A DNA stretch of 54,380 nt from a virus (lineage: Duplodnaviria; Caudoviricetes), in IMG/VR virus record IMGVR_UViG_3300038479_000056, positions 1-54,380 of that record; one strand, 5' to 3'. Below are positions 2 to 54,380 of the stretch, in pieces (within the stretch, counting starts at the first letter, position 1; each line of letters opens with the position of its first letter). The notes below the pieces were generated by a model. That model worked only from the letters and a program-made list of their open reading frames with translations, was not told the origin of the DNA and did not search any database. The position numbers and the translations under genes are program-made.

Positions 2-61
2 CGGATTCATCACCGGGACCAACAGTTCAAGGAATCCAAGAAAAAGATCGTCTGTGCCTGA
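2..61 (+). CDS. 3' fragment of gene upstream of terminase (alternative allele)
   Basis: Frame 2 reads RIHHRDQQFKESKKKIVCA-TGA(59-61), overlapping the terL GTG at 54; the sequence was not seen elsewhere in the window. Confidence 0.45.
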   Translation, partial: RIHHRDQQFKESKKKIVCA

Positions 62-1856
62 CCTCATCTTTAAATATAACGTGTGGTGGCCGGAGGGCGC
101 GTCTGCCCTTGAGATCGAGCGCGAGTGCATTCGGCAGGGAGGCCGCTGGACGGTCAAAGGCAAGGAGCGCGGGGCGGGGTTGTTCGAGCATTTCAAGGCT
201 TTTTTTGATTTGTGCTGGCCGGAAGATCATCACAACCGCTGGAGCGATTTAATCTTGAGCAATCTGGTCACAAACCGGTTGACGGTCGTGGCTGGGCCGA
301 AAAACAGTCAAAAAACGAGGACGGGGGCGAAGTGGGCGCTGACCAAGTATTGGGCTTCGCCGTCGGACACGCAGGTTTTGCTCACCAGCACCGACCGGCG
401 CGGATTGCAGCAACGCATTCTGGGCGACATCAAAAGTCTTTTCGAGCGGGCCAGGAGAATTCATTCGCAGTTAGAGGGAAATTTCGTAGAGGCGCACGAC
501 GCCATTTTTACCGACGCCCTTTCGACCGGGGAAGGAACAAGGGACTGGCGGCGCGGCATCATCGGCGTGCCCATCCTGAGCAGCACCGGGGATTTTCAAG
601 GGCTGGCCATCAAGAATTTTGCCGGGATTAAGCAGGAACATCGCGTTTTGCTGGCGGACGAGATTCAGTTCGTGCCCGTTGAATACTTGAAAGTTCTTGA
701 CAGTCTTGACGATGGCGATTTCGCCGCGTGTATGCTGCTCAACCCGATAGCGGGCAACGGCAAGGCCGGGGACATGGTCAGCGAACCCATCCACGGTTGG
801 GGTAGTATCGGTGAAGTGACTAAGACCACGACCTGGAAGAACAAGTATGGCGGCGTTACCGTGCAGTTGGTGGGGACGGACAGTCCCAATTTCGATATTC
901 CGCTGGTCCATTATTACAAGAATTTGATTGATCGCAAGATGGCCGACGCGGTGGCGAGCCGTCCCGGAGGGAAGGACAGCCGGGAATGGTGGAGTCTCAT
1001 CATGGGCGTGCGCAAGAGCGGCGTGTTGGATTATCGAGTGCTGACGGTGGAGTTGGTTGAGAGCAATCACGGGTTTGACGATTGCAAATGGGAGATGGAA
1101 CCGGAGATCAAGGTCATCGGGATAGACGCCGGGTTCGGGGGCGATCCGTGCATTCTGACCTGGGCCATGTGCGGCAAGGAAGTGGGCAAGGGTCAGGTGA
1201 TGCGGTTTGGGGATCAGGAAGAAATTCCGATTGTGATCAGCCCGGCTTTGACCCCGGAAAAACAAATTGCGCTTTACGTCAAGAAACGGTGCGATGAACT
1301 GGGCGTGGCGCCGGAAGGAGTGTTCGCCGAATGCGGTATGCGGGCCACACTGATGCAGGAAATGGCGCTGATAGTCGGTGTGGGTGTCAACGCGGTCAAC
1401 GCGGGCGGGCCGGCCACACAAAGGCCGGTTCACAACGAATTTTACATTGACGATGAAAAGACAGGTCAAAAACGGCTCAAGACCTGTTACGAGCATTACA
1501 GCAAATTCGTCACCGAATTAAGTTTCACCGTGCGGGAATTGGTCATTGGCGGGCAGGCGCGGAAATTCCCCATTGGAGCGGCGGAAGAATTCGAGCAGAG
1601 AGAATCCCGGGACGTGTACAACAACCGGATTGAGCTTGAGACCAAGCGGGAATACAAAGAGCGCATGGGCGCGGGCAGCCCGAATTTATCGGACTCGGCA
1701 GCTATAACGGTGGAGGGCGCGCGCCGGATGGGGTTTGTGTTGGAACGGGTCAGCGACGGGACGGGCCAGGGTAAGGCCCCGGAGCGGGACTGGCTGGGGG
1801 ACGCCGCGGACGAACAGGAAAAACTCGAATCAGAACGCGAATTGATCTACGATTAG
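54..1856 (+). CDS. terL: Terminase large subunit
   Basis: Walker A-like VAGPKNSQKT, Walker B VLLADE, motif III-like LLNP, RNaseH/RuvC-like IGIDAGFGG, C-terminal SPNLSDS. Confidence 0.85.
   Translation: MPDLIFKYNVWWPEGASALEIERECIRQGGRWTVKGKERGAGLFEHFKAFFDLCWPEDHHNRWSDLILSNLVTNRLTVVAGPKNSQKTRTGAKWALTKYWASPSDTQVLLTSTDRRGLQQRILGDIKSLFERARRIHSQLEGNFVEAHDAIFTDALSTGEGTRDWRRGIIGVPILSSTGDFQGLAIKNFAGIKQEHRVLLADEIQFVPVEYLKVLDSLDDGDFAACMLLNPIAGNGKAGDMVSEPIHGWGSIGEVTKTTTWKNKYGGVTVQLVGTDSPNFDIPLVHYYKNLIDRKMADAVASRPGGKDSREWWSLIMGVRKSGVLDYRVLTVELVESNHGFDDCKWEMEPEIKVIGIDAGFGGDPCILTWAMCGKEVGKGQVMRFGDQEEIPIVISPALTPEKQIALYVKKRCDELGVAPEGVFAECGMRATLMQEMALIVGVGVNAVNAGGPATQRPVHNEFYIDDEKTGQKRLKTCYEHYSKFVTELSFTVRELVIGGQARKFPIGAAEEFEQRESRDVYNNRIELETKREYKERMGAGSPNLSDSAAITVEGARRMGFVLERVSDGTGQGKAPERDWLGDAADEQEKLESERELIYD
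68..194 (+). repeat. 127-nt exact repeat, copy 1
   Basis: Identical to 54254-54380. Confidence 0.95.
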
Positions 1857-1862
1857 CTGACT

Positions 1863-2516
1863 ATGAATAGAAACGAAACTCCTCCGGGCGGATTTCAATT
1901 CCATCAAGCGCAATCGGGCTGGTCCGCGCCAACACCAGTGGCCAGCACCTTTAACCAGACCGTTGAACTGATCATCCAGCATCGCCGGGCTAATCCGGCC
2001 ATGACCGCGCAGCACAAGCTCAGTCTGGACCCTGGCGCGGTCGGCACCGAGCTTGAGTCTTACACGGCGCGGAGATTGGGCCTGCCGGACCCAAAACCGG
2101 CTCCGGCACCGCCAACACGGCAGTCGATGTCGGGCAAGGTTGTTCAAGCTGTGGCAGACGTTAAAAAGCTGGCGGCGGGCGCGGCAGTCCTTTTTGAGTG
2201 GCAACAATCCGGCGACCCGCCAGTGGATCAGGAAGTGGCTAATCAGCGAGCAGTGATTTGTGCGACTTGTCCCAAGAATGAGGCAGCGGGATTCTCGCGT
2301 TATTTCACTGCGCCGGTGCAAGCTATCATTATGAAGCAGTTCGAGCGGTTGCATAAAATGAATCTAAAAACGCCTAGTGACGATAAGTTAAATGTTTGCC
2401 AGGCGTGTATCTGCCCGCTCAGGGGCAAGGTATGGGTTCCGTTGTCGTTGATTTTAAAACGGCTAAAACCGGAAGAACGCGCGGAGCTTGATCCTCGTTG
2501 CTGGATCACGAAATAG
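1863..2516 (+). CDS. Hypothetical protein with Cys motifs (possible metal binding)
   Basis: CATCPKN and CQACICP motifs; tightly packed after terL. Confidence 0.65.
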   Translation: MNRNETPPGGFQFHQAQSGWSAPTPVASTFNQTVELIIQHRRANPAMTAQHKLSLDPGAVGTELESYTARRLGLPDPKPAPAPPTRQSMSGKVVQAVADVKKLAAGAAVLFEWQQSGDPPVDQEVANQRAVICATCPKNEAAGFSRYFTAPVQAIIMKQFERLHKMNLKTPSDDKLNVCQACICPLRGKVWVPLSLILKRLKPEERAELDPRCWITK

Positions 2517-2843
2517 ATGAGCGACAAGAAGAAATGGCCGCTGGAGCAGGCGAAAGCCGTGGCCGTTGAATTGCTTTCTTACTTGCACGGCTTTTGTGAG
2601 CGGGCGCAAATCGCGGGCAGCATCCGGCGCGGCAAGTCTCTGGTGGGAGATATTGAGATTCTTTACATCCCCAAGATGGAGATGCGGAAAACGGATATGT
2701 TTTCGGCCCATGAAGTTGACCTGGCTGAAATTAAGGAGGGAAACACACTGTTGGAAACATTTGCAAAGCGTGTCAGCGATGCAATTACAGTAAACAAAAT
2801 AAACCGATCATTGCCGTTGTTCCAAATGGTCAACGTCTCTTAA
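2517..2843 (+). pseudogene. Truncated PolX/DNA polymerase beta-like nucleotidyltransferase
   Basis: AGSIRRGKSLVGDIEIL nucleotidyltransferase motif; similarity appears to end near residue 70, followed by an AT-rich tail. Confidence 0.6.
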
Positions 2844-2847
2844 TCTG

Positions 2848-3552
2848 ATGACCATTCTCTTGGCGTATATTTGCGTGACTGGTGGGCCAAAGACCCACGA
2901 ACTGGCCGCGCGATTCGTCGGGTCCTACTTAACTCACCCACCAGGAATTGAACACCAAACTGTGGTTGTCTGTAATGGCGGTCCACTTTCAACTGAAACG
3001 GCCCTGTTGTTCCTGCCGCTGGACGTAAAATTTTTTCCAAGGGAAAATGACGGCGGTTGGGATGTGAGCGGATTCCAAGATGTAGCCAAGAATTTCCAGT
3101 CAGATATGCAGGTAAATTTTGGTGAGAGTTGCTACCTGCACCGCCCCGGCTGGCTTCGGCAGCTTGCTCAAGCGTGGTCTGTTTTTGGCCCTGGGTTCTA
3201 TGGCGTGTTCTCAAGTCATGCCGTTCGCGCTCACCTGAACACGAACGCTTTTATGTGCGCGCCGAAGCACTTGACTGAATATCCAGCGGTGCGGACGCAT
3301 CGTGAGCGCTATGAGTTCGAGCACGGGCCGGACGCGCTGTGGCGGCGGCTGGACAGGAAAGGGGTGCCGGTGCGGTTGGTGACCTGGGACGGGACCTGGG
3401 CCAAGGGCGACTGGCGCAAGCCGGCCAACATCCTGTCCCGTGGCACGCAGGAAAATTCCCTCGTATTTTGCATTCATAACGAGAGATACTGGGCTGCTGA
3501 TCCGGCGACGAAGCGGAAATGGGCCAGTTACAGCGATGCGCCTTTCCATTGA
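2848..3552 (+). CDS. Glycosyltransferase-like hypothetical protein
   Basis: GT-A-like pattern (VVVCNGG, RENDGGWD); stop TGA is supplied by the end of tnpB element 1. Confidence 0.5.
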   Translation: MTILLAYICVTGGPKTHELAARFVGSYLTHPPGIEHQTVVVCNGGPLSTETALLFLPLDVKFFPRENDGGWDVSGFQDVAKNFQSDMQVNFGESCYLHRPGWLRQLAQAWSVFGPGFYGVFSSHAVRAHLNTNAFMCAPKHLTEYPAVRTHRERYEFEHGPDALWRRLDRKGVPVRLVTWDGTWAKGDWRKPANILSRGTQENSLVFCIHNERYWAADPATKRKWASYSDAPFH

Positions 3553-3710
3553 CATCCTCCCCGGCCTGAAGGCGCGGGGATTCCTTGAATACAAATATGC
3601 TAGACATTTGCAGAGCTAGGTTGGTTGACACTTCGACGAGCATGGCGCGCCGAGGCCGAAGCCTTGGCGTGACTGATATGCTCTCCATGTCCTTTAACCG
3701 GCTGTCCACC
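3549..3710 (-). ncRNA. Putative omegaRNA scaffold, element 1
   Basis: Position at tnpB 3' end/right end; guide predicted from flank TGGAAAGGCGCATCGC; 5' limit approximate. Confidence 0.55.
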
Positions 3711-4892
3711 GGCAAATTGAAGAATGTTTTTCGCGGCATTCTGATCTCTGTCCAAATGCTCGCCGCAGTTTTCGCATTTGAACTCGCGCACTTCCAAACC
3801 AAGGCTGCTGTGTATGTATCCGCAGGAATTGCACCGCCTGCTGCTTGGGAAGAATCTGTCTGCTACGCGCAACTCGCGGCCATACCAGGCACACTTGTAA
3901 GTCAGCATCGAACGGAACTGCCCAAAGCTGGCGCAACTGATATGCTTTGCGAGTTTGTGGTTCTTGACCATGCCGCGCACGTTCAAGTCCTCGATGGCCA
4001 GAACATCGAACCGGCGCACCAAATCTGTGGTGAGCTTGTCCAGTGTGTCCTTCCGGCAGTTGGCGATCTTGGCGTGCAAACGAGCCACTTTCAACCGCTG
4101 CTGATTCCAACGGCCACTGCCCTTGATGCGACGGGCGAGAACCCGTTGCAATCTCGCCAGCCTTGCGGCGTGGCGGGCAGTGTGGCGTGGGTTTGCCATC
4201 CGCTCGCCGTTACTCAAGGTTGCGAGCCGACTGATTCCAAGGTCAATCCCGACCATGCTTCCTGTCTTTGGGAGCGCGGCCTTGGCTGGTTCGTCCAGAC
4301 AAAGACTCACGAAATAGCGTCCATCCCTGCCCTTGGTTATCGTGCAGGTAGTAGGCTCGCTCGCGAAACCGCGACTCCATTTGACATGAAGCCGACCGAC
4401 TTTGGAAATTGTGAGGTTGCGGTTTGCCGCATCCCATTTGAAACCGCCAGAATGGTATTCGGCGGATTGCTTGTCGTGCTTGGAAGCAAACCTTGGATAG
4501 GCTGTCCGCTTGGCAAAGAAATTGGAGAACGCAGTTTGCAAGTGCCGCAATGCCTGCTGCTGTGGGATGCTGGACGATTCACGCAGAAAAGCAAACTCGC
4601 CGGTATTACGATGTTTAGTCCAAGCCGCGCTGCTGGCGTTGTAATTGACCGGCTTGCCGTCTTTGAAGCTGTCCGTGCGGAGGCGCAAGGCAAAATTGTA
4701 GGCGTGCCTGACACAGCCGAACTCCCGCGCCAGTTGCCGCGCTTGGCGGTCTGTCGGGTAGCATCGGAATGTCATGCGAACTTTCACTTGCAAGAATCTA
4801 CTCCGTCTTGTAAGGTTTGTCCAATGCTAATTTCAACAACTGAAAAAGCCGGGCTAAAGCCACGGGGTTTTCAACCCATAAGGAATGGATAA
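3585..4892 (+). other. Full-length antisense ORF across element 1
   Basis: 435 codons, codon-aligned with tnpB; its TAA overlaps the ATG at 4892 (TAATG); translation unproven. Confidence 0.4.
3600..4793 (-). CDS. tnpB: RNA-guided endonuclease TnpB
   Basis: FRCYPT N-terminus; RuvC GIDLG / IEDL / DRDQNAA; zinc finger CNSC..CENC. Confidence 0.95.
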   Translation of the reverse strand: MQVKVRMTFRCYPTDRQARQLAREFGCVRHAYNFALRLRTDSFKDGKPVNYNASSAAWTKHRNTGEFAFLRESSSIPQQQALRHLQTAFSNFFAKRTAYPRFASKHDKQSAEYHSGGFKWDAANRNLTISKVGRLHVKWSRGFASEPTTCTITKGRDGRYFVSLCLDEPAKAALPKTGSMVGIDLGISRLATLSNGERMANPRHTARHAARLARLQRVLARRIKGSGRWNQQRLKVARLHAKIANCRKDTLDKLTTDLVRRFDVLAIEDLNVRGMVKNHKLAKHISCASFGQFRSMLTYKCAWYGRELRVADRFFPSSRRCNSCGYIHSSLGLEVREFKCENCGEHLDRDQNAAKNILQFAGGQPVKGHGEHISHAKASASARHARRSVNQPSSANV

Positions 4893-5920
4893 TGAACGAG
4901 CCTATCCACATCATCAGCCTTGGGGCTGGAGTTCAATCGTCAACCGATGCGCTCATGGTTTCAGAGGGTGAACGCGGCCCTATGGTGTTGTGTGCGATCT
5001 GTGCAGACACCAAAAGAGAGCCTGGCAGCGTGTATTTGTGGCTCGCTAAACTTTGCGGGTGCGTTGTTCAGTTTCACGCAGACGGCAGGCCGTTTGTTGA
5101 ACCTGGAATTTATTCATCCGGGATGCTCAAGTTTCCGGTTCACATCGTAACTGCCGGGGATATTGTAGAGGATGCCCTGCGCGTCCGGCAACGGCTCGAT
5201 GGCAAAGGTTCATGGGTGCCTAGTGGCGTGCCTCATTATTCGATTAACGCGGACGGAACGCACGGCCACGGGCCAAGGCAATGCACGCATGATTTCAAAA
5301 TAGTTCCCATCGAAAGAGAATTGCGCCGCTTGATCGGGCGAGAGAAAATGTCGGCATGGAGGAAAGTTCACAAAACCGCCCTCAAAGAGATTTCAAAATA
5401 TCAGAAAGCCTTGGCCATTTGGAAACGCAATAGGAAACTAGACCCACTGCTTTTGCCTCCGACGTTTCCAAGTCGTGAATTCGATGAGTGCCAAGCTGAC
5501 CCGTTAGCTATACAGCGCATTGGCATCAGCACCGATGAGGCGTCCAGAGCGAAACCTTCGCGTGTTCCTTACTTGGTTCATATCTGGCCCCACCTTGACC
5601 ACGGCACAAATAGGGATGGCTGCATTGAATGGCTGGCGAAGCGTGGATTGGAAGCTCCTAAATCCGCCTGCGAATTTTGCCCCTACCATGATGACGATGA
5701 ATGGATTTGGTTGCGGGACATGGAGCCGGAAAGTTTTGAGAGGGCGGTAAAATTTGATTACGCTTACCGAGCCGCCAAAATACAGACGGTTTCAATCAAA
5801 GGCTTTGAACCCTTCATCCACCCCAGCCGACTGCCCTTGGACAAAGTCAAATTCAAAAAGTCGCACGGCAAACAACTAACCATGTTTAACAACGAGTGCG
5901 AAGGGATGTGCGGGGTATGA
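4892..5920 (+). CDS. PAPS reductase-like / PP-loop protein
   Basis: ISLGAGVQSS PP-loop, ADT..EP, KSACEFCPY, terminal ECEGMCGV. Confidence 0.75.
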   Translation: MNEPIHIISLGAGVQSSTDALMVSEGERGPMVLCAICADTKREPGSVYLWLAKLCGCVVQFHADGRPFVEPGIYSSGMLKFPVHIVTAGDIVEDALRVRQRLDGKGSWVPSGVPHYSINADGTHGHGPRQCTHDFKIVPIERELRRLIGREKMSAWRKVHKTALKEISKYQKALAIWKRNRKLDPLLLPPTFPSREFDECQADPLAIQRIGISTDEASRAKPSRVPYLVHIWPHLDHGTNRDGCIEWLAKRGLEAPKSACEFCPYHDDDEWIWLRDMEPESFERAVKFDYAYRAAKIQTVSIKGFEPFIHPSRLPLDKVKFKKSHGKQLTMFNNECEGMCGV

Positions 5921-6600
5921 AAACTGCCGTTTTTTTTCATACTCGGTTGAGCGGCGGTTACAATGTCGATTCGGGTGCGGCGGTGGAGCCCGGTTGGGGC
6001 CGGTCCCTTTTCTTGGAGCAAATGGCGGTTCTGGTCAAGAGCGGGTTGGCCGAGGCCGCCCAAGAATTCTTCATTGGTTTCAATGGGAGCCGCGGGGACT
6101 GGGCCTTTGTCTGTGACAATACTCCCGCCAAGGCCAAGATATTGCAGCACGGGGAGAACGCCCGGAGCTTGTTGCCGACGATGCGGTTTTTGCAGGACTG
6201 GTTGCCGGGCCACGAGGATTGGGCGGTGTTCTTTTCGCATGCCAAAGGAGCGTGTCATCCGAATGATCCTCTTACGACCCGGTGGCGGAATTGCATGACG
6301 CGGCATTGCATCACGAACTGGCGGCGGTGCGTGGCCGATTTGGAGGCCGGTTACGACGCGGTAGGTTGCCACTGGCTTCACAACAGGCCGAATGACCCAA
6401 ACGCGGACAGGTGGGGGGCCAACAGCTACTTTGGCGGGGTGTTCTGGGGCAGCAAGGCCAGGTATCTATTGACTCTGCCGCCGTTGCCGGACCTGGCGAC
6501 GGATCGGCACTCGTTTTATCTGCCCGAATTGTGGCTGGGCAATGGCAAGCCCAAGGTAAAGGACTACGCCCAAGGGCACGCGATTGGAGCCTGTCCGTGA
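5917..6600 (+). CDS. Glycosyltransferase-like hypothetical protein
   Basis: ATGA-coupled start; FFSHAKG, YDAVGC, FGGVFW and ELWLG motifs resemble phage GT-associated proteins. Confidence 0.5.
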   Translation: MKTAVFFHTRLSGGYNVDSGAAVEPGWGRSLFLEQMAVLVKSGLAEAAQEFFIGFNGSRGDWAFVCDNTPAKAKILQHGENARSLLPTMRFLQDWLPGHEDWAVFFSHAKGACHPNDPLTTRWRNCMTRHCITNWRRCVADLEAGYDAVGCHWLHNRPNDPNADRWGANSYFGGVFWGSKARYLLTLPPLPDLATDRHSFYLPELWLGNGKPKVKDYAQGHAIGACP

Positions 6601-7187
6601 ATGTGACCATCATTATGCCATTCTCGCGCGCGCACAATGCCGAGGCGATCAAGGCGTCCTTTGTTTCCGCCTGTGACGGGTTCAACGGCAAAGCCAGGCT
6701 GATTGCCGTTTGTTCCGATGAGGCGCACGTCGGTTTATTTGACGAATCGGTGCTGACTTTTTTGCCGCCGGGTCTGGACTGGTGCTATTTCAAATGCAAT
6801 CAAGCCTTGGAAAATTTGCAGCCGTCCAGCCCCGAAGATTATTTCGGTTTTGTGTGCGACGACGATCTTTATGAGCCGGGCTTTTTCGCGTCCCTGGAAC
6901 AACTGATCGGGGCCAGCCGCCCGCGAGTTATTGTCGTCAACATGAAGCGATGGTTTCACGAGGTCGCTGTGCGGGATGAATTGTCGGCCTGGCCGGATTC
7001 GATGCGGGTTGGGTTGGTGGGTTTGGAGCAATTCTACATTCGGGGCGACATCATGGGGCGGTGGCGGTTCAACCAAAATGTCTCGCACGGCGACGGAGAT
7101 TTGATGGCGCGACTGCACGCGGAGATGCCCCACGATTTCGTTTTCTTCCGGCACTTGTTCGTCCACTGGAACAAACTTCCCGCATGA
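6597..7187 (+). CDS. GT-A (family 2-like) glycosyltransferase
   Basis: GTGA-coupled start; VTIIMP N-terminus; YFGFVCDDDLY DxD motif. Confidence 0.65.
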   Translation: MNVTIIMPFSRAHNAEAIKASFVSACDGFNGKARLIAVCSDEAHVGLFDESVLTFLPPGLDWCYFKCNQALENLQPSSPEDYFGFVCDDDLYEPGFFASLEQLIGASRPRVIVVNMKRWFHEVAVRDELSAWPDSMRVGLVGLEQFYIRGDIMGRWRFNQNVSHGDGDLMARLHAEMPHDFVFFRHLFVHWNKLPA

Positions 7188-9586
7188 CAACCGCACCCAA
7201 CAAGAGTAAGAGTCAATTTATGAAATGGGACAAAGTTGGTGATGTAGAAGAAATTGTCTGGTTCTTAAGAACGAATGATTTAACCCGCGGGGCAAACCGG
7301 GAGAAGATCAACCGACTCTTTAATGGGGGACTTCCGTACAGTAAAGCGCAAGAAGCTGAAAATTCAGTTAGTGTCAACCGCAATTTCCTGACTGGCCCAA
7401 ACATTCTCACATCGGGGCGAGGTCAATGGAACAATGCTTTCCTCAAGCAAAAGACCTATTTCGGGGTCAGTCTTGATTCCGGTCCGGTCAACAAGCGGCA
7501 AGAGGCCGGGGCCATCATCACGCGCAACATCAATCGGCAGTTGAAGAAATGCCGGGCGCAGATGGAGCAAATCCGGGCCGAAGGCGCACAAGTTATTTTA
7601 CACGGTATCGCGCCTAGCGGATTTAAAGACCGGCGCTGTCCCATTCTAACGTCTTTGCCGGTTGCGAGTCTTCTTATTCCTGATGAAACTGATTTGGATT
7701 TTGAGAACCTAGAGTATTTCGCCGTATTCCGGGAATGGACGCCCTACCAACTTTACGCGCTAACGCACGGGCCGAAGGTTGATCCTGGTTGGAACATGGA
7801 AGCCGTCCAAGCTGAGTGGGATTATGTTAAAGAACAGACCCGAAAAGAATTGCCCGGTAGCAACACCTTGCAATTTATGCCTGAAAGAATAATGGAGCTT
7901 GAAAAACAGGCTGCTCTTTGGGGCACAACCGCCGTGCCGACGGTGGACGTGTGGGATTTCTACTTTCGCGAGGCTGAGGACGGGCAAGGTTGGTATCGGC
8001 GCATCATGCTGGATTGGGGCGCGGCTGAGGGCGGTCTGAACGCGAACAGCGCCCAGCCTGAGAGCCGAAACGGAGCAGGCGAAAAAGATTACGGCGGGTT
8101 TCTTTACACCAGCGGCCAGCGTAAGTACGCCAACAGCCTGAGCGAGATTTTACAGTGCCAATTTGGGGATTGCAGCGCTGTGGCGCCGTTCAAGTATCAT
8201 TCCGTGCGGAGCCTGGGCTGGCTGCTGTGGGGCGTGTGCGAGATCGAGAACCGGTTGCGCTGCCGATTCACCGAAAACATGTTTATGAACATGATGTGGT
8301 GGTTTAAGTGCGCCAGCGGCGGGGACATGGCGCGGGTCAAGAAAGCCATGTTCGAGCAGATCGGGGTCATTCCCGCCGGCATAACGATGATGACGGAGAA
8401 CGAACGGTTTAAGCCCGACGAAAAGTTGTGGGCGGTTATGGTGGAGCAGATTGAAAAAACCATGAATCAAAGCGCGGGATCGTTCATGGGCAACCCGGCT
8501 GACATTGGCAAGGAAGAGACAGCCACGGGCACAATGGCGCGCGTTCACAGCGTTGGCCAGATGATGGGGGGGATGCTGACACTGGCCTACGAATACAGCA
8601 AATACAAGTATCAGGAACAGAGCCGCCGGTTCTGCATCAAAAACAGCCCGTATCAGATGGTGAAAGATTTTCGGCTGGCTTGCCTCAAAGACGGCCTGGA
8701 CGCGGAAATGCTGGATTCGAGCCGGTGGAACATCGAGCCAGACCGGGCTTTGGGCGACGGCAATAAGATTTTGGAAATGGCCATCGCGCAAGGTCTGGAA
8801 AACATCAGGAAAAACGCGACACCGGACGGGCAACGGCTCATTGACCATCAGTACGTCGTGACGCTGACGGACCGGCCCGACCTGGCCGAGGCGCTTTTTC
8901 CATTGCAAGGCCAGAAGAAGCTCAGTCCGAGCAGTCACGACGCGCAACTGGCCGCCGACAGGATTCTGCGCGGGCTGCAATTCGCCATTCCGTCCGAGGC
9001 CGTGCCGGAAGATTACGTCATGGTCTGGCTGGGCGACATGGCGGCCGTCATCAAGCAGATTCAAGGGACGGGCAACGTCGGCACGATGCCGGAACTTTTG
9101 GGCCTGGCCAACCTGGGCCAGCACATCGGGCAAGCCATTGGCCTGATGGCGAGCGGGCATGGCAAGGAGCCGGGGCACGGCCAGAAACGGGGCGAGGCCG
9201 AGGACATGCACAAGATCAAGCAGTATAAGGACGCCCTGGGCAAGATGATGAACCTGGTCAAAGGCTTCGCGCAACGGCTCCAAGAGCAGCAGCAAAAGGG
9301 CAACGGGCACGGACTCGACCCGGAGAAGATGGCCAATATTCAGACCGATCAAATGAAGGTCAAGGCCAAAATTCAACTTGGTCAGGAGAGCCACGCGGCC
9401 AAGACCGCGCAGCGGCAGGCTGCATTTGAGCTTGAGCAACGGCGGAAAGACCGTGAAAGCGAGGCGGAAACCCGGCGCCAGAATCAGCGGACGGGCCAGG
9501 AGATCGCGCATAAACACCTGGACAAACTGCTGGACGCCCACCACCGAATGCTGGGCGAAGGCGACGAAAGGACTCAACAGGATTAA
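7184..9586 (+). CDS. Putative portal protein
   Basis: About 800 aa; lies between terL and scaffold/capsid; ETAT motif; Gln-rich coiled-coil tail; ATGA-coupled start. Confidence 0.65.
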   Translation: MTTAPNKSKSQFMKWDKVGDVEEIVWFLRTNDLTRGANREKINRLFNGGLPYSKAQEAENSVSVNRNFLTGPNILTSGRGQWNNAFLKQKTYFGVSLDSGPVNKRQEAGAIITRNINRQLKKCRAQMEQIRAEGAQVILHGIAPSGFKDRRCPILTSLPVASLLIPDETDLDFENLEYFAVFREWTPYQLYALTHGPKVDPGWNMEAVQAEWDYVKEQTRKELPGSNTLQFMPERIMELEKQAALWGTTAVPTVDVWDFYFREAEDGQGWYRRIMLDWGAAEGGLNANSAQPESRNGAGEKDYGGFLYTSGQRKYANSLSEILQCQFGDCSAVAPFKYHSVRSLGWLLWGVCEIENRLRCRFTENMFMNMMWWFKCASGGDMARVKKAMFEQIGVIPAGITMMTENERFKPDEKLWAVMVEQIEKTMNQSAGSFMGNPADIGKEETATGTMARVHSVGQMMGGMLTLAYEYSKYKYQEQSRRFCIKNSPYQMVKDFRLACLKDGLDAEMLDSSRWNIEPDRALGDGNKILEMAIAQGLENIRKNATPDGQRLIDHQYVVTLTDRPDLAEALFPLQGQKKLSPSSHDAQLAADRILRGLQFAIPSEAVPEDYVMVWLGDMAAVIKQIQGTGNVGTMPELLGLANLGQHIGQAIGLMASGHGKEPGHGQKRGEAEDMHKIKQYKDALGKMMNLVKGFAQRLQEQQQKGNGHGLDPEKMANIQTDQMKVKAKIQLGQESHAAKTAQRQAAFELEQRRKDRESEAETRRQNQRTGQEIAHKHLDKLLDAHHRMLGEGDERTQQD

Positions 9587-9740
9587 AGTTCCCCGGCCTA
9601 AAGGCACGGGGATTTAGCCGAGTCCTTCACCAACACCAAATCGCCATGCGGAACGCACGATTCAGAGTCAATATCGACAGACCCGATGCTTTTAGCGGCT
9701 TTAATGCTCGCCGTCTCCGAAGCGTTGCACGCTATGGAGA
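9583..9740 (-). ncRNA. Putative omegaRNA scaffold, element 2
   Basis: Overlaps tnpB 3' end and right-end hairpin; guide predicted TCCTGTTGAGTCCTTT; 5' limit approximate. Confidence 0.5.
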
Positions 9741-10779
9741 CAGACCGCGCCCGGATGTTCTTCGAGGCTTGGCGGTCTGCGTCGTCCTTGTGGCCGCACT
9801 TCTGACAACAGAAGCGCAAGCCTTTCCGGTTCGATGCCGAGACATGGCCGCAGGCACTACACCCACGGCTTGTGTTGCGGGGGCTGACGGACTCCAATTC
9901 GATTCCGACAGCAGCAGCCTTATAGGCGATCTTGAATCGCATATCGGCATACGGCCAGCGGTGAACTTTGGAACGGAGGTCTTTCCCCTTGCTCAGAGAA
10001 CTGTCTCGAATGTTCTCCAAGTTCTCGACCACGATGCGCCTTGCTCCAACCTCAACCGCGTAGCTGACCAGTGCCTTACTTGCCGTGTGGAGCAAGTGCG
10101 CGGTTACGGCAGCCTCATGCCCGGACATCCTTCGCAGGAGCCTCCGGGCACTTCTGGTGCCAACCGACTGGACAGCGGCGCGGGTGCGCCGGATACAAGA
10201 ACGACGGTGATTCAACACCCCGCCGTGGAAGAAAAATGGTTTGGCGTTTGCCGAGTTGGTAGCGACCAGCATTCGCTTGATGCCGAAATCACAGCCGACA
10301 ATGCAGCCCTCGGACTTCGGTTCGGGAATCTCGACTTCGTGAGCCAAGCAGAGAAACCACTGGTTGCCTATACGCTTGATCTTGGAGTCTTTCCAGTCGC
10401 CCTCTGGCAGTGGGCGGGAATCCACGACGGTCAGAAGTTCCCCCCAAAGTGTGATGCCTTTTTTGGTGCGATTGAAATCCCGCTTCCATACCGTCGGGAT
10501 AACGGCACGGGAAAACTTCGCAAGCCTCCAACGCTTGTTCGCCTTGGCGGTCTTGTAGGTGGCGCAGACGGTTTTGCAGAGGGAGCAGGCAAGTTGGGAA
10601 GGCAGCCCCATCTCTCGGAGGTTGGCGTAGTGAGCTTTTGCCAGTCGATTCGAGTTCAACTCCTCGGTCTTGAAGGCAATATCGGAAAGCCAGTTTGCAG
10701 CTTTCAGCCAAACAGCAAGCAATCCGTCAGCTTTTGTGCTGCCGGAAATCTTGAGCTTGACTGTGCGGATTGCTTTCAC
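9598..10779 (-). CDS. tnpB: RNA-guided endonuclease TnpB
   Basis: RTVKLK N-terminus; GCDFG / VVENL / DADRQAS; CSAC..CQKC. Confidence 0.95.
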   Translation of the reverse strand: MKAIRTVKLKISGSTKADGLLAVWLKAANWLSDIAFKTEELNSNRLAKAHYANLREMGLPSQLACSLCKTVCATYKTAKANKRWRLAKFSRAVIPTVWKRDFNRTKKGITLWGELLTVVDSRPLPEGDWKDSKIKRIGNQWFLCLAHEVEIPEPKSEGCIVGCDFGIKRMLVATNSANAKPFFFHGGVLNHRRSCIRRTRAAVQSVGTRSARRLLRRMSGHEAAVTAHLLHTASKALVSYAVEVGARRIVVENLENIRDSSLSKGKDLRSKVHRWPYADMRFKIAYKAAAVGIELESVSPRNTSRGCSACGHVSASNRKGLRFCCQKCGHKDDADRQASKNIRARSVSIACNASETASIKAAKSIGSVDIDSESCVPHGDLVLVKDSAKSPCL

Positions 10780-10787
10780 TACATTGA

Positions 10788-10816
10788 AGGCTACTACAAA
10801 GAAAAAACAATGTCAA
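10788..10816 (-). promoter_or_regulatory. Sigma70-like promoter of tnpB2
   Basis: TTGACA-17-TAGCCT ending about 9 nt before the GTG. Confidence 0.55.
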
Positions 10817-10845
10817 CCGAATTGCGAAGCGTGAAAAACAAATAA
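10810..10845 (+). pseudogene. tnpA: Putative tnpA N-terminal stub
   Basis: MSTELRSVKNK, divergent from tnpB; matches MSNELR of element 4. Confidence 0.45.
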
Positions 10846-45278: not shown

Positions 45279-46526
45279 TTACGCCCGAGTACTTGGCCAG
45301 TCAACAAATAACGGCAGGGAATCCCGCCATTGATGGTGGGAGGAATTGCCGCCCTTGACAAACTGTGTTTTATTTTCTGTATTTGAATAATGACAGTGAC
45401 GGTCCAATTGAAACTGATGCCCGATGCGGCGACCGCCGCATCGATGGAGGCCACTTTGCGGGCGTGCAACGGGGCGGCTGACTGGCTTTCGGAGCGCGCC
45501 TGGGGCAACCGGAAATTCGGGCAGTTCGCTTTGCAATCCGCTTTCTACAAGGACATTCGGGCAATGTTTAACATCGGGGCGCAGGCATCCTGCTTGATCT
45601 GCGCTAAAGTGGCCGATGCCTACAAACTCGACACCGAAACGCAGCGGACCTTCCGACCTTTGGGCAGCATCGCCTACGATGTCCGTAATTTGAAAATTCA
45701 CATTGAGAAGCGCGTGGCCTCGATCTGGACCATTGACGCTCGGTGCAAGGTTCCATTTCAGTGCGGCGATTACCAGGTTGATCTGCTCCGCAAAGGTCTG
45801 ATAAAGCAATCCGACCTCGTGCGCCGCCGGGATGGCCGATGGTTCCTGATGGTTTCTGTGACGCTTCCAGACACCGAGGAGTTGAAAGTGACCGACATTT
45901 TGGGCGTGGACCTGGGCATCGCTGTCATAGCCGCCGATTCGGACGGCAACAAATACTCCGGCTCCAAGTTGAATAAAATCCGGCACAGGAACAAATCGTT
46001 GCGCCGGAAGTTGCAGCGCAAAGGGACCAAGTCGGCCAAGCGGCTGTTGAAAAAGAGGAGCGCAAAAGAGGCTCGCTTCGCCCGTGACTGCAATCATGTT
46101 ATTTCCAAGAAGCTCGTATCGCTGGCTAAACGCACCAACCGCGCCATTGCACTCGAAGAACTCGACGGCATTGGCCGGAGGATAAGGGTTAGAAAAAGTC
46201 AGCGATACGGGTTGCATAGCTGGGCTTTCGCGCAACTGGGCCAGTTCACCCGTTACAAGGCCGCGATAGCAGGAGTGCCGGTGATCTTCATTGACCCGCA
46301 CTATACATCCCAGCGATGCAGCCAATGCGGCCACACCTCCAGAGCCAACCGCAAAACGCGGTCGGAATTTCTCTGCCAGAAGTGCGGCCATGCGTCCCAT
46401 GCGGACACAAACGGTTCGCTGAACATTAGGGCCTTGGGCCTGGACGTTCTGCGAACGGGCGCTTTCATACGCCCATACGCGGAGGCCACTACCTATGCCA
46501 ACTGACATGGGCTTATCCATCTGCAA
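45279..46526 (-). other. Full-length antisense ORF across element 3
   Basis: 415 codons, codon-aligned; stops shortly before the terminator; translation unproven. Confidence 0.35.
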
Positions 46527-51015: not shown

Positions 51016-51501
51016 ATGACTTGGTCATCTCAAGAGACTATCGCACGTAACCAGTCCACTCTCCATCGCGCTCTTGTCTCCGCAGGACAACTCCGCAGAC
51101 ATGCACGTAACCGTGCCCTGCGACAAGCCGAAAAAGATCGTCTTATAACCGAGCGTAACCGCCATTTAACCCTCCCAGAATCCGACGCCGGCCAAATCCT
51201 GGCCATGACCGGCCCAAACCCTACCCCAGCCATGCTCCAAGCTAGTGCCACCGCCCTGGCCAAACTGCGCTCAGGAAGGTCCGGTTCCAGGCCCGGTAGG
51301 CCCAAACCCGGGCCCGCTCCAAAGCTGGTCCTGACCTACGATGAGCCTGTACACGCTCCTGTTCCTGCCACTGCTCCTGTCCCTGCTCTTGCTCCTGTCC
51401 CTGTTCTTGCTCCTGTCCCTGTCCCTGTTCCTGTCCCTGTCCCTGTCCCTGCTCCTCTCATGCCCAGTCTCAAGCCTAGACCAGATCAGTGGGATGATTA
51501 G
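51016..51501 (+). CDS. Hypothetical protein with (PV)n tail
   Basis: Basic N-terminus; hexamer repeat encoding PVPVPV. Confidence 0.5.
   Translation: MTWSSQETIARNQSTLHRALVSAGQLRRHARNRALRQAEKDRLITERNRHLTLPESDAGQILAMTGPNPTPAMLQASATALAKLRSGRSGSRPGRPKPGPAPKLVLTYDEPVHAPVPATAPVPALAPVPVLAPVPVPVPVPVPVPAPLMPSLKPRPDQWDD
51355..51455. repeat. CCTGTY/CCTGCT hexamer tandem repeat
   Basis: Seen directly; reverse-complement-like tract at 51890-51929. Confidence 0.85.
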
Positions 51502-52070
51502 AGCCTGACTCTTGCTCTGGTCTGTTCTGTTTTCCGCAGACCAGCTTCGCTGGACTGCGATGTTGATCGCTCCCGAGCTTCGCTCTCTCGCTCTCAACTG
51601 TTGTGTTGGTCTCTCTTACATTGTTCCATCATGAACATTCTAAGGAATCTCTTGTTTTCCAGCCCTGTCCCGGCCCCCGGCAGGGGGGGGACCGCGCGGG
51701 ACGCCGGCGGGACGGGGTATGAGCAGCCCTTTTACAGATAGGAAAGGAAACCGGATGAATTTGTTATCCTAAAAGCCAGGGGGTGCGGGGGGGCGTAGCC
51801 CCCCGCGTACCGGGGACAGGGCCGGGAGCAGGTTTTGTTTTGGGGGATTTGGGGGGAGAACGACTGTACTAAAAAAACCGGAAAAAAAAGCAGGAACAGG
51901 ACTGGGACAGGGACAGGGACTGGGACTGGTTTAGAACCTGGATTTGAATCTGAAGCTGGTTCTGTGTCAGGGTTAGAAGCGGGGCAAGAATCGGATCTGG
52001 GCATGGCACTATCCCCCGTGTGGAGGACAGCCAACTCATTACCGGCAGTTTATCTGCGCGGGCCGCGGGG

Positions 52071-52655
52071 TTACGTGATCGCGGGAATTTGAGAAGAATC
52101 CTGGCTTACGCCACGCTCCGCAACAGGGTGACGTGTCCAATCCTGTGGTGGGACCAAGCTTTGGGCTTGGCAACGGTCGCTCGGCTCAACGTGTCTTTCT
52201 GTTGAGTCTTGATGAGCGCATCCTGGGTATTCGTTAACGAGTGGCCCCCCAACCTGCTCGGAATGGGGTACGTGGGCCGCGTTGGCCGATGGGCCTACTG
52301 TGCGCGGCGCCGGGTTTAACTCGCCGACCTTTGCTGACTTGATCGGATTATAGGCGGCGCCGACTTGGGCGCGGGCCTGTTGAGGGGAGATGCCCTCGTA
52401 CATGCCGGGGCGAAATTTTCGGATTCGATGAATTTCTTTGGGACTGAGCCTGAAATTGCCTGGGTTACGATCAGGGAGAGGGGTCAGGCCGGCATTGGAA
52501 CGGAGAGCGGGCGGGGCTTTCCAATGTTTGGCCATGTGAGGGTGTTGAGCGCGCCACGCTGCCAGGCGGGCTTTGCGCAATGAGAGGAACTCTCTTTGGG
52601 ATAAAGGTTTGCGGGTGCGGTTTTCGCGTCTTACTTTATCCCAATCGCGGGGCAT
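52071..52655 (-). CDS. Basic hypothetical protein
   Basis: MPRDWDKVRRENR; own upstream promoter. Confidence 0.45.
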   Translation of the reverse strand: MPRDWDKVRRENRTRKPLSQREFLSLRKARLAAWRAQHPHMAKHWKAPPALRSNAGLTPLPDRNPGNFRLSPKEIHRIRKFRPGMYEGISPQQARAQVGAAYNPIKSAKVGELNPAPRTVGPSANAAHVPHSEQVGGPLVNEYPGCAHQDSTERHVEPSDRCQAQSLVPPQDWTRHPVAERGVSQDSSQIPAIT

Positions 52656-52673
52656 CAGAAGGCCCTCCGAACA

Positions 52674-52743
52674 ATCAGAGTGCCAACCAGTGGTAGTTGC
52701 TTAGGCTTCCCCCCGTCACATGGGGTCTGGTTGGCACTCTGAT
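52674..52743 (-). ncRNA. Leader stem-loop with 17-bp perfect stem
   Basis: ATCAGAGTGCCAACCAG / CTGGTTGGCACTCTGAT. Confidence 0.55.
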
Positions 52744-52808
52744 AGTTGAACTGTGACATTCCTAGCATGGTGCAAATTAGATTATGTCCTGAATTTTGTC
52801 CACAGGCG

Positions 52809-52837
52809 TTTATAGAACAGGTTGGGGCTGTGTGCAA
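52809..52837 (-). promoter_or_regulatory. Sigma70-like promoter
   Basis: TTGCAC-17-TATAAA. Confidence 0.6.
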
Positions 52838-52850
52838 CAAAAATCTTCAA

Positions 52851-53045
52851 TTATTTTTCCTTGAACCAGACCTCGAAGTCTTTGAGGACGCGGCGGATTT
52901 GGCCGGCTTTGGCCAGCAATTCGCAATGGCTCTGGCAGATATTCTCCGGGATGCCGGAGATGCAGGCGATGTATTTGGGCTGGAAAGAGAGGCCGGCGGC
53001 GGCGGAATTGAGTATGGTCTGGATGGCGATGGAGTGTTGGTTCAT
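52851..53045 (-). CDS. Small winged-helix-like protein
   Basis: GLSFQPKYIACISGIPENICQSHCELLAKAGQI. Confidence 0.55.
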   Translation of the reverse strand: MNQHSIAIQTILNSAAAGLSFQPKYIACISGIPENICQSHCELLAKAGQIRRVLKDFEVWFKEK

Positions 53046-53080
53046 ACACTGTGATTATTTCTACGAAGCTCGTTTGACAT
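53042..53080 (-). pseudogene. tnpA: Putative tnpA N-terminal stub
   Basis: MSNELRRNNHSV resembles Y1 transposase N-termini (..RxxHSVY..); divergent from tnpB. Confidence 0.55.
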
Positions 53081-54253
53081 ATTCAATCCTTTGAATATAT
53101 TAAGCGAGTGAAGTTGACTGTTCAAGTGAAACTTTTGCCGACGCCAGAACAATCGAAGGCGTTGCGCGAAACTCTGGAGTTGGCGAATCAAGCGGCATGT
53201 CGTCTGTCGGAACTGTGCTGGGAAAAGAAGGAGTTTCGCCAGTTCCCAATGCACCGTTTGTTCTACAAACAGATTCGCAGTGAGTTCGATTTGTCCTCTC
53301 AGGTTGTTGTCCGCCTTAACTCCAAGGTTGCTGACGCCTACAAGCTGGACGAGAAGACGCAACGCACTTTTCGCAAGCACGGCAGCATTTCCTACGACGC
53401 TCGCATTCTTGATTTCCAACTTCCTGCCTCGACCGTGAGCATCTGGACTGTGAGAGGAAGGTTGAAACATATTCAGTTTGTCTGTGGCGAGCGCCAGCGT
53501 AAGCTGCTGGAACTTCCGAAAGGCGAGAGCGATTTGGTTCTGCGTGACCGCAAGTGGTATCTCAACGTGACCGTGGACGTGCCAGAGGAACGCGAACAGG
53601 AAGTTGTTGGCTGGCTTGGCATCGACCTTGGACTGGTGAACCTCGCGCAGAGTTCCGACGGGCAGACATTCGGTGACGCTCGCAAGACAGCCGGTATTCG
53701 CGCTCGGCGATGGCGGCAGAGAAAGCGACTTCAAAAGAAAGGCACGCGCAAGGCCAAGCGCATCCTGCACCGGCTCAGTGGACGGGAACAAAGATTTATG
53801 CGGGACGTGAATCACGTCGTCGCCAAACAGATTTGCGGTGTTGCTAAACGCACGAATCGAGGGATTGCCTTGGAAGATTTGAAAGGTATTCGTTCGAGGA
53901 TCAGGGCTAACCGAAAGCAACGCCGCATCCTGCACTCGTGGGCCTTCGCGGATCTCCAAGCGAAGATTGCCTACAAGGGCAGGCTTATCGGAGTGCCGGT
54001 CAAACTCGTTGACCCTCGCAACACCAGCCGGACTTGTCCGGCCTGCGGCAGTGTCAGTAAGAAGAACCGGCCCACACGCGATAAGTTCGCGTGCCAGTCG
54101 TGCGGGTTTACCGCCGATGCCGATACCAACGCAGCGGGAAACATTTCTCGCCGGGGTGCCTTCAATCACCCGCACGTAACGGAAATTAGTTGTGGCAAAA
54201 TCCATGACCGTATCCAGTTACAATCCCCATCCCTTCAGGGAGGGGTAATTGAA
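53046..54253 (+). mobile_element. IS200/IS605-family non-autonomous tnpB element 4
   Basis: Right-end hairpin CCCCATCCCTTCAGGGAGGGG then TAATTGAA; right junction fixed (+/-1 nt) by the empty allele at 64-68; preceded by TCAT. Confidence 0.8.
53074..53101 (+). promoter_or_regulatory. Sigma70-like promoter, leaderless tnpB4
   Basis: TTGACA-16-TATATT; GTG begins 7 nt after the -10 box. Confidence 0.65.
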
Positions 54254-54259
54254 CTTTAA
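53108..54259 (+). CDS. tnpB: RNA-guided endonuclease TnpB
   Basis: TVQVKLLPT; GIDLG / ALEDL / DADTNAA; CPAC..CQSC; stop codon lies in the flank. Confidence 0.95.
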   Translation: MKLTVQVKLLPTPEQSKALRETLELANQAACRLSELCWEKKEFRQFPMHRLFYKQIRSEFDLSSQVVVRLNSKVADAYKLDEKTQRTFRKHGSISYDARILDFQLPASTVSIWTVRGRLKHIQFVCGERQRKLLELPKGESDLVLRDRKWYLNVTVDVPEEREQEVVGWLGIDLGLVNLAQSSDGQTFGDARKTAGIRARRWRQRKRLQKKGTRKAKRILHRLSGREQRFMRDVNHVVAKQICGVAKRTNRGIALEDLKGIRSRIRANRKQRRILHSWAFADLQAKIAYKGRLIGVPVKLVDPRNTSRTCPACGSVSKKNRPTRDKFACQSCGFTADADTNAAGNISRRGAFNHPHVTEISCGKIHDRIQLQSPSLQGGVIEL

Positions 54260-54380
54260 ATATAACGTGTGGTGGCCGGAGGGCGCGTCTGCCCTTGAGA
54301 TCGAGCGCGAGTGCATTCGGCAGGGAGGCCGCTGGACGGTCAAAGGCAAGGAGCGCGGGGCGGGGTTGTTCGAGCATTTC
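54249..54380 (+). CDS. terL: terL 5' end, element-containing allele (TTG start)
   Basis: GGAGG then TTG AAC TTT AAA TAT, in frame with terL. Confidence 0.6.
   Translation, partial: MNFKYNVWWPEGASALEIERECIRQGGRWTVKGKERGAGLFEHF
54254..54380 (+). repeat. 127-nt exact repeat, copy 2 (circular closure)
   Basis: Identical to 68-194. Confidence 0.95.

Follow-up and report, generated by a model that had tools for sequence, protein, structure and literature searches.

We analyzed a virus record of IMG/VR in its entirety (the window; 54,380 bp, from a peat-soil phage), which is labeled "linear" and has a CheckV completeness estimate of 96%. Close to its right edge, a TnpB-only unit of the IS200/IS605 type that we call element 4 (53046 to 54253, plus strand, 1208 bp) ends within the start of terL, the gene for the large terminase. 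We found that the junction between the right end (RE) of element 4 and terL is real and polymorphic in nature and that the filled and empty alleles co-occur in peat and permafrost samples. In the filled allele, the RE replaces terL codons 1 to 4 and two bases of codon 5. The explanation that we consider probable, although by no means secure, is that terL of the filled allele is expressed from the promoter of the element through coupling at a TTG within the RE, that the guide RNA of the element is directed against the empty allele, and that these two uses of the transcript trade off.

The contig has the shape of a lariat. Window positions 68 to 194 and 54254 to 54380 are identical letter for letter over 127 nt, a length that would be typical of an assembler k-mer overlap, and this overlap closes a circle from 68 to 54253 (54,186 bp). 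A 67-nt tail (1 to 67) enters the circle at position 68. The tail is unique in the window, where no other match is longer than 14 nt, and comes from a second, uninterrupted allele. It spans the last part of a small upstream open reading frame (ORF) and the native terL start, and positions 15 to 67 continue into the independent empty-site contig L003. It was probably this alternative-allele tail that hid the terminal repeat from the classifier, hence the label "linear" on a closable circle. Because the contig is a lariat, comparing the N termini MPDLIFKY and MNFKY amounts to comparing the two ways in which this one contig enters terL.

The uninterrupted gene starts GTG CCT GAC CTC AT|C TTT at window 54 to 71. 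In the filled allele the junction reads ...CAGGGAGGGG TAA TTG AAC TTT AAA TAT AAC GTG..., and the ORF that is open from the TTG at 54249 reads MNFKYNVWWPEG in the program-made ORF list. A preliminary description of this DNA had given the junction as GGAGG-GGTAA-TTG AA|C TTT, and direct reading of the letters confirmed this.

To place the junction in natural populations, we compared public runs in the form of Logan contigs, which drop rare variants, and we judged bridging of a junction by a 31-letter rule. Run X1 is a possible source sample, and runs X4 and X5 are independent. In X1, one 5919-nt contig covers 52000 to 54380 with 0 differences and extends 3390 letters further, and the X1 contigs hold the filled form only. 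In X4, a unitig of depth 11 covering 54211 to 54283 holds the RE-terL junction, while the empty allele is represented by two other unitigs (depths 4.7 and 4.5), in which ...GTGCCTGACCTCAT precedes 54254/54255. A further X4 contig (depth 6.2) matches 54211 to 54253 with 1 mismatch and then enters a different flank, which points to a close copy of element 4 in another replicon or variant in that sample. The second flank as another site in this phage was ruled out by 0 matches in the window at <=3 mismatches. In X5, a single 1288-nt unitig of depth 29.3 runs without a branch from 52996 through the whole element to 54283, a terL contig of depth 40.2 begins at 54254, and in one contig 54254 is preceded by at least 255 letters from the empty allele. 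The filled unitigs of X4 and X5 stop 30 letters into terL, one below the 31-letter rule, where the graph branches with the empty allele, and 30 letters of the empty-allele tail recur as loose ends at 54254 in both runs. The junction, whose support by reads had been in question, is thus bridged in X1 and reached to within a letter of the rule in two independent samples.

The protein record is consistent with two alleles. The cluster of TerL at 90% identity has 25 members. Eight of the 15 that are listed are 600 aa long and start VPDLIFKY or VPDLIYKY (with M in the representative), and the others are one 597-aa form starting LNFKYNVWW (P0126, on a separate 3638-nt contig), two 591-aa forms starting VWWPEG, and four fragments. 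Exact-pattern scans of IMG/VR for both junctions gave no match, although the window's own record and close kin were possibly excluded from the scan. RNA run X15 gave contigs at 52002 to 52651, 52661 to 52811, 53202 to 53625, and 53674 to 53817; it has no cover of 53840 to 54380 and is therefore silent on junction expression and on the ends of an omegaRNA.

Identity of terL and of element 4

The terL product (54 to 1856, plus strand, 600 aa in its native form with a GTG start) had no Pfam match even at E <= 10 and no PHROG match at E <= 0.01, and a sequence search of the PDB returned only the Sf6 "Gene 2 protein" (E = 0.57). We accepted the gene as terL on the strength of its modeled fold. An AlphaFold2 model made with 48 aligned sequences had a mean predicted local distance difference test (pLDDT) score of 87.4, and Foldseek gave 52 PDB matches at E <= 0.001, the top ranks of which were all large terminases. 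The top full-length matches were Sf6 gp2 (5.7e-13), HK97, D6E, and T4 gp17; separate matches were to isolated ATPase domains (P74-26) and nuclease domains (E217, G20c). The model thus has the two-domain TerL fold, with an N-terminal ASCE ATPase and a C-terminal RNase H-like nuclease. There were 450 homologs at E <= 0.001 among 7998 scored candidates, mostly of about 590 to 620 aa, and many lie on contigs of about 52 to 58 kb. Their alignment consensus includes ...GSRDSSKTR..., in which K87 is invariant and the likeness to a Walker A motif was judged by eye only. Intein or Hint Pfam domains are present in 5 of the 120 listed homologs (P0030, P0035, P0067, P0086, and P0095; 890 to 941 aa); selfish elements have targeted terL repeatedly in this phage family. 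Two other listed homologs, P0040 and P0074, are 887 to 890 aa long without a recorded domain.

The tnpB gene of element 4 (53108 to 54259, plus strand, 383 aa) has its stop codon within terL sequence. Its product matched PF07282 (4.7e-20) and PF01385 (2.4e-08), both above the cutoffs, as well as phrog_506 (2e-46). In an alignment to Cas12f/TnpB structures (9.4e-23), GIDLG, ALEDL, ADADTNAA, and CxxC..CxxC were kept; with the RuvC D-E-D triad and the zinc finger retained, the protein looks to be of the active type. We found no Y1 TnpA (PF01797) in the record at E <= 0.1, with a control search that was positive in 7 of 14 genomes. Many members of the IS200/IS605 family are nonautonomous, and the absence of TnpA is no bar to membership. 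Over the whole window, no Rfam family, including omegaRNA/IS605-orfB RNA, reached its gathering score. The exact TnpB sequence was absent from the protein collection and had no pattern match among viral contigs. Its closest relative in genome contigs is 52% identical, which is too distant to define borders at the DNA level but useful for RE and left-end motifs.

Element 4 is not the only unit of its kind in the window, which holds four divergent tnpB genes, at 3600 to 4793 (minus), 9598 to 10779 (minus), 45390 to 46505 (plus), and 53108 to 54259 (plus). TnpB of element 3 is 45% identical to that of element 4, and those of elements 2 and 1 are 27 to 28% identical. An RE stem of the type AATCCC..TTCA/TTTA..GGG is common to all four, and an exact TTGACA lies just upstream of tnpB in three of them (elements 2 and 3 besides element 4). 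Each of the four genes is also covered end to end by an antisense ORF of 387 to 435 aa (3585 to 4892, 9598 to 10845, 45279 to 46526, and 53042 to 54259). These may be an effect of codon composition or a real overlapping gene; the accessible part of a 2026 cyanophage preprint describes a translated reverse-strand ORF on a phage tnpB.

Borders and history of the filled allele

The right border of element 4, 54253|54254, is firm. It is fixed by the divergence of the empty allele, by the second flank in X4, and by the flanks of relatives, which diverge exactly 8 nt after the stem: Methanosarcinales copies read GGGAGGGG-TAATTGAC and then enter several different flanks. On the left, an alternative X5 contig follows 52996 to 53028, continues with diverged first codons of a 64-aa ORF and GGTTCAT, and then enters unrelated sequence. 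Because the homology of this alternative allele ends at 53045, we placed the left border at 53045|53046, which gives the element its length of 1208 bp. The 64-aa ORF (52851 to 53045, minus strand) has no Pfam or PHROG match, and its ATG (CAT at 53043 to 53045) abuts the left border.

Directly 5' of the breakpoint in the empty allele is CTCAT (63 to 67, plus strand), which resembles a target-adjacent motif (TAM). TCAT is found both before the left border (53042 to 53045) and in the empty site (64 to 67), and there is no target duplication. We regard TCAT as a candidate TAM, but positions 53043 to 53045 are also the start codon of the 64-aa ORF, and the left flank differs from the empty-allele flank. 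Methanosarcinales relatives have TCAAC before three different left borders.

The empty allele is represented by L003, an independent contig of 9072 nt in which 8880 nt align to window 15 to 8894 at 99.85% identity; it was the only contig that a metagenome scan gave at about 100% identity. The 192 nt at its start, which are not matched in the window, encode a small ORF whose stop overlaps the native terL GTG (GTGCCTGA). This small ORF (L003:1-236) is homologous to the ORF upstream of terL (548 to 823) in L010, a 61%-identical relative (41% over 29 aa, E = 2e-08), and had only sub-threshold matches of the ribbon-helix-helix (RHH) type (Omega_Repress, 0.03; HicB, 6e-4). RHH "Arc" repressors of IS605 promoters are described in the accessible part of a 2026 preprint. 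L010 also carries a homolog of a 194-aa ORF of the window just upstream of terL, and the closure of the window circle is therefore syntenic.

More than 245 nt of the empty allele are missing from the filled one: the intergenic region, the small RHH-like ORF, and terL codons 1 to 5. The preliminary description had spoken of an insertion within codon 5. The breakpoint is indeed inside codon 5, but the filled allele is a replacement rather than a plain insertion, because its left flank is not the native sequence upstream of terL. We also considered whether the empty allele is an excision product of element 4, and this was ruled out because the left flank differs from 53045 leftwards. The filled allele may have arisen by recombination after two insertions at TCAT sites, by a deletion beside a single insertion, or by import of the whole segment from a diverged phage. 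Differences between the alleles begin at about 53026 to 53029, which fits segment import from a diverged phage or co-conversion during homing. At 49 related IMG/VR terL loci (with <=4 kb of flank on each side), a search at E <= 1e-4 gave no match to TnpB, to the 194-aa or 64-aa ORF, or to the small upstream ORF (0 of 49); the best TnpB E-value was 0.22.

The right-end hairpin and the candidate start of terL

The RE closes with a predicted terminal stem-loop of the omegaRNA (54216 to 54255, plus strand) that encloses a Shine-Dalgarno (SD)-like run, the TTG, and the first codon after it. The SD-like run, GGAGGGG (54239 to 54245), is the 3' arm of the stem and is kept as GGGAGGGG in the relatives L016 to L020. 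A stop codon in the terL frame, TAA at 54246 to 54248, directly precedes the TTG (54249 to 54251), which is 5 nt after GGAGG. The tnpB frame, with its stop TAA at 54257 to 54259, ends 8 nt beyond the TTG, and the overlap of stop and start that had been noted earlier proved to be 11 nt long. The claim that the ribosome-binding site sits in the end hairpin also held: the SD-like run and the TTG are both within the predicted stem, and the minimum free energy of 54214 to 54273 is -17.3 kcal/mol, compared with -5.6 for the native terL initiation region. The same terminal stem is present in a 216-nt fold (z = -3.42).

This terminus is not peculiar to the phage. A consensus RE stem in 12 elements has 8 pairs, 7 of them with compensatory changes. 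The GGGAGGGG arm and the linker TAATTGA(C/A/T) are common to elements of Methanosarcinales, Thermoplasmata, Micrarchaeota, and Chloroflexi metagenome-assembled genomes, and TTGA is present in the 8-nt linker of 8 of the 12 compared elements. Because arm and linker are shared with relatives and the stem covaries, the GGGAGGGG-TAATTGA terminus is older than the insertion, kept by RNA or DNA structure and co-opted rather than evolved for terL. The proposal that the element end rebuilds the start of the gene therefore stands in one part: an SD-like run and an in-frame TTG are present, but as an ancestral RE motif kept for its structure. All that sets the terL case apart, whether fortuitous or selected, is the reading frame (1 in 3) and a position that is tolerated. 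In a Methanosarcinales relative (L019:1249-1300), the RE terminus, there GGGAGGGGTAATTGAC, also abuts a gene start: 7 nt separate it from the ATG of a long downstream ORF, with which it is not in frame.

Where, then, would TerL of the filled allele start? Tyr8 is invariant in 48 of 48 aligned full-length TerL homologs, and the next start after the TTG, GTG 54267, lies beyond it. TTG 54249 is the only start that keeps this residue. The number of residues before the Tyr ranges from 1 to 18 in the family and is <=4 in 10 of the 48; it is 4 in the 597-aa product that begins MNFKY at the TTG, a start that has been called in P0126. From this we infer that terL of the filled allele starts at TTG 54249.

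How ribosomes would reach this TTG is a separate question. The preliminary description had assigned it a ribosome-binding site. The SD-like run is there, but an SD is present at only 3 of 43 crude ORF starts of the phage (a rough set that includes antisense ORFs and takes the first possible start of each), and the site is buried in the stem. Because SDs are rare in this phage and the SD and TTG lie in a -17.3 kcal/mol stem, termination-reinitiation from tnpB is a likelier route to TerL than SD-led initiation. The 11-nt overlap likewise suggests reinitiation by ribosomes that are fresh from tnpB and have opened the stem, and a comparable overlap joins the small ORF to terL in the native arrangement.

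A candidate promoter for this arrangement lies at the other end of the element. The sigma-70-like site TTGACA-16-TATATT (53074 to 53101, plus strand) has 11 of 12 consensus matches and is the sole strong site in 52000 to 54380. Only 6 nt separate its end from the tnpB GTG, and a tnpB transcript would therefore be nearly leaderless. No terminator-like site was found on the plus strand between 53108 and 54380. Both ORFs upstream of element 4 are on the minus strand, and the native region upstream of terL is absent from the filled allele. Because the upstream ORFs are antisense and the native upstream region is lost, it is plausible that terL of the filled allele depends on the element promoter; the match is to a sigma-70-like consensus, and the host's own promoter type may differ.

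Proposed mechanism, alternatives, and known systems

In the mechanism that we propose, a tnpB-terL bicistron would be transcribed from the element 4 promoter, and TerL would be translated from TTG 54249 mainly by ribosomes just off tnpB. These ribosomes would melt the hairpin, terminate at 54257 to 54259, and reinitiate on terL, so that tnpB-terL coupling would replace the native coupling between the small ORF and terL. The resulting MNFKY N terminus would keep the invariant Tyr and stay within the natural range of the family. The same transcript would also serve targeting. According to the available portion of one report (10.1101/2023.03.14.532601), members of the IS605 family take their guide from the DNA that immediately follows the RE, and in the empty donor joint this flank directly adjoins the TAM. 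Under this rule the predicted guide is the 16 nt after the RE (54254 to 54269, plus strand), which are native terL codons 5 to 10; the earlier claim that the guide would be 5' coding sequence of terL is upheld to that extent. The 16-mer is found in the genome only at 68 to 83 and 54254 to 54269, with <=3 mismatches allowed. The protospacer follows CTCAT in the empty allele, whereas in the filled allele it follows TTGAA, with TGAA at the TAM position. TnpB of a filled phage, loaded with an RE-derived omegaRNA that carries 54254 to 54269 as its guide, could cut co-infecting empty phages in an essential gene, and the cut phages would be converted by recombination (homing) or excluded.

The two functions would compete for one RNA. 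A TnpB protein on the scaffold and guide would mask the SD, the TTG, and the first codons, and ribosomes engaged in translation would in turn open up the scaffold. TnpB is reported, in the accessible part of one paper, to process its own mRNA into omegaRNA (PMC10278001). With one transcript put to two exclusive uses, TerL output and omegaRNA formation should trade off, and competition of the kind raised in the preliminary description would be expected. A bolder version is tentative, and we hold it with low confidence: that the element is an RNA-guided gene drive or competitor-killing device, that it persists on the 5' end of an essential gene because its conserved omegaRNA terminus also serves as a portable initiation site, and that TnpB loading throttles TerL and ties ribonucleoprotein formation to the timing of packaging. 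The co-occurring alleles in X4 and X5 fit ongoing drive or competition but are no proof of one.

Several points weigh against this account. At the start codon, initiation at the TTG is predicted from sequence, a stable stem takes up the SD-like run, the TTG, and the next codon, the phage makes little use of SDs, and the gene calls for two cluster members (P0128 and P0133) begin at GTG 54267 and give 591-aa forms. At the junction, strict bridging was given only by the contig from X1, the possible source run, and the assembly downstream is common to both alleles, so that it would not separate out defects specific to the filled-allele terL. The history of the allele is more complex than one insertion, and the left border was placed from a diverged allele. 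By self-BLAST and by eye, the left-end hairpin and GGAGGAATTG of relatives and of element 3 were not found in 52600 to 53107, where only an AT-rich 8-bp palindrome (53080 to 53099) lies upstream of tnpB; lacking a left-end hairpin and TnpA, element 4 may be immobile. The TAM, the guide, and cleavage activity are predicted from family rules only.

These points bear on three other explanations. One is that TerL of the filled allele starts at GTG 54267, as a 591-aa protein made by reinitiation 8 nt after the tnpB stop, with the TTG and SD irrelevant and the Tyr8 strand dispensable. GTG 54267 is unpaired, whereas the TTG and the SD-like run are sequestered in the stem; P0128 and P0133 begin VWWPEG, as this start would predict; and some homologs (P0048, P0075, and P0089) are annotated from starts downstream of the KYG motif. 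However, this start would discard a Tyr that no aligned homolog lacks, and residues 5 to 7 and 10 to 12 are predicted to form a beta-hairpin, with a mean pLDDT of 78 over the first ten residues. The 591-aa calls may stem from contigs that begin at the graph branch, and the short homologs may be truncated gene calls. We consider this start unlikely, and TTG 54249 is retained as the candidate.

A second explanation, which we judge still less credible, is that the filled allele is a defective or parasitic genome in which terL is poorly or not expressed and which persists by co-infection or as a prophage, with TnpB drive offsetting the cost. The presence of both alleles together in X4 and X5 would fit, as would the loss of the native promoter region, the conserved small ORF, and the native start, and the strongly structured new initiation region. 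Against it, the filled junction accounts for 29.3 of about 40.2 depth units in X5; the X1 contigs hold the filled form only, with the reservation on rare variants given above; and in 14 DNA runs from peat and permafrost, 80% or more of the words sampled from 52600 to 54380 are present. An in-frame TTG right after a stop, with the invariant Tyr preserved, also has the look of a selected functional fusion. Finally, that the junction is an assembly chimera from a collapsed repeated insertion sequence, with no single genome so built, is very improbable: the lariat contig with its 127-nt overlap and 67-nt tail, the left flank unlike native terL upstream sequence, the second RE copy with a different flank in X4, and the CheckV estimate of 96% would be compatible with it, but the unbranched 1288-nt unitig of X5 (52996 to 54283) and the X1 contig across 52000 to 54380 and beyond, the single copy of element 4 in the window with no trace of the second flank, and the syntenic closure indicated by L010 all speak against it.

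Under the favored explanation, in which the RE supplies the terL start through coupling to tnpB, element 4 can be set beside known systems. It resembles IS200/IS605 TnpB-omegaRNA elements such as ISDra2 and ISGst of G. stearothermophilus in its RuvC triad, its zinc finger, and a structured RE over the 3' end of tnpB. As in those elements, the guide would be RE-flanking DNA, and the empty allele has a short motif abutting the flank, as TAM and donor joint do in the available portion of the same report (10.1101/2023.03.14.532601). Unlike them, it has no TnpA, left-end hairpin, or Rfam match, is phage borne, and abuts the start of an essential gene; its empty allele is not an excision product, since the left flanks differ, and its activity, TAM, and omegaRNA ends are predicted.

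Mobile element ends that supply expression signals are familiar: IS10 and ISAba1 drive neighboring genes from outward or hybrid promoters. Element 4 would do likewise for its adjacent gene, but its end would also give the start codon and first residues, and the signal would be part of a guide-RNA scaffold. IStrons (Zedaveinyte et al. 2024) reportedly join an IS605-type element to a group I intron, so that splicing restores the gene and omegaRNA formation conflicts with splicing. The likeness is in a TnpB element tolerated against a gene whose expression the element restores, and in one RNA region with two exclusive uses. The difference is that restoration by element 4 would be translational, through an RE start codon and a stop/start overlap, with no intron and with no Rfam ribozyme match in the window. 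Homing endonucleases and inteins in phage terminase genes also favor terL, a gene that cannot be lost, and have co-occurring filled and empty alleles; unlike these, element 4 would be targeted by RNA, and it replaced the start with no protein or RNA splicing. TldR proteins are described, in the accessible part of their report, as nuclease-dead TnpB derivatives that act as RNA-guided repressors, some of them on prophages (PMC10705468). Like TldR, element 4 encodes a phage TnpB-family protein with a guide matching the 5' part of a gene, but it keeps the catalytic D-E-D, and its guide matches its own flank, as in mobile TnpB elements.

The kind of unit to which element 4 belongs, a TnpB-only IS605-type element, is already known, and phage-borne tnpB is in print (2026 preprint on cyanophage A-1(L), accessible part). 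What is new is an RE supplying the start of an essential phage gene, the natural co-existence of filled and empty alleles, and a TnpB at a terL locus when none was found near the 49 related loci. In the literature that we covered, supplements aside, no description came up of an IS605 right end that provides the start codon of a gene. To our knowledge, the evidence that TnpB persists through cutting of the empty site and recombinational repair comes from engineered bacteria rather than from natural populations of viruses. The alleles described here co-exist, and the predicted guide matches the empty allele beside a candidate TAM, which makes RNA-guided homing or exclusion among co-infecting phages open to test. 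A structurally constrained end that supplies a start codon would also give IS605-type elements an intron- and intein-free route onto an essential gene, and one RNA segment would be at once ORF tail, guide-RNA scaffold, and ribosome-loading site. If this is general, the clade with GGGAGGGG-TAATTGA right ends could colonize gene starts in one frame out of three.

Some minor features of the record remain. GT/AC-rich, microsatellite-like stretches are found at 51336 to 51501 and 51869 to 52034, with PVPVPV or TGTGTG runs in several frames; close to one of them, about 148 nt left of 52000, the X1 Logan contig comes to an end. A strong inverted repeat (52670 to 52747) with 21-nt arms (95% complementary) and a 36-nt spacer lies between the minus-strand ORFs of 194 and 64 aa, and beside it an X5 variant skips 103 nt, from 52750 to 52854. 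At the other side of the window, the ORF at 4892 to 5920 adjoins element 1 and has a phosphoadenosine phosphosulfate (PAPS)-reductase-like PHROG match (phrog_424, 1.1e-24).

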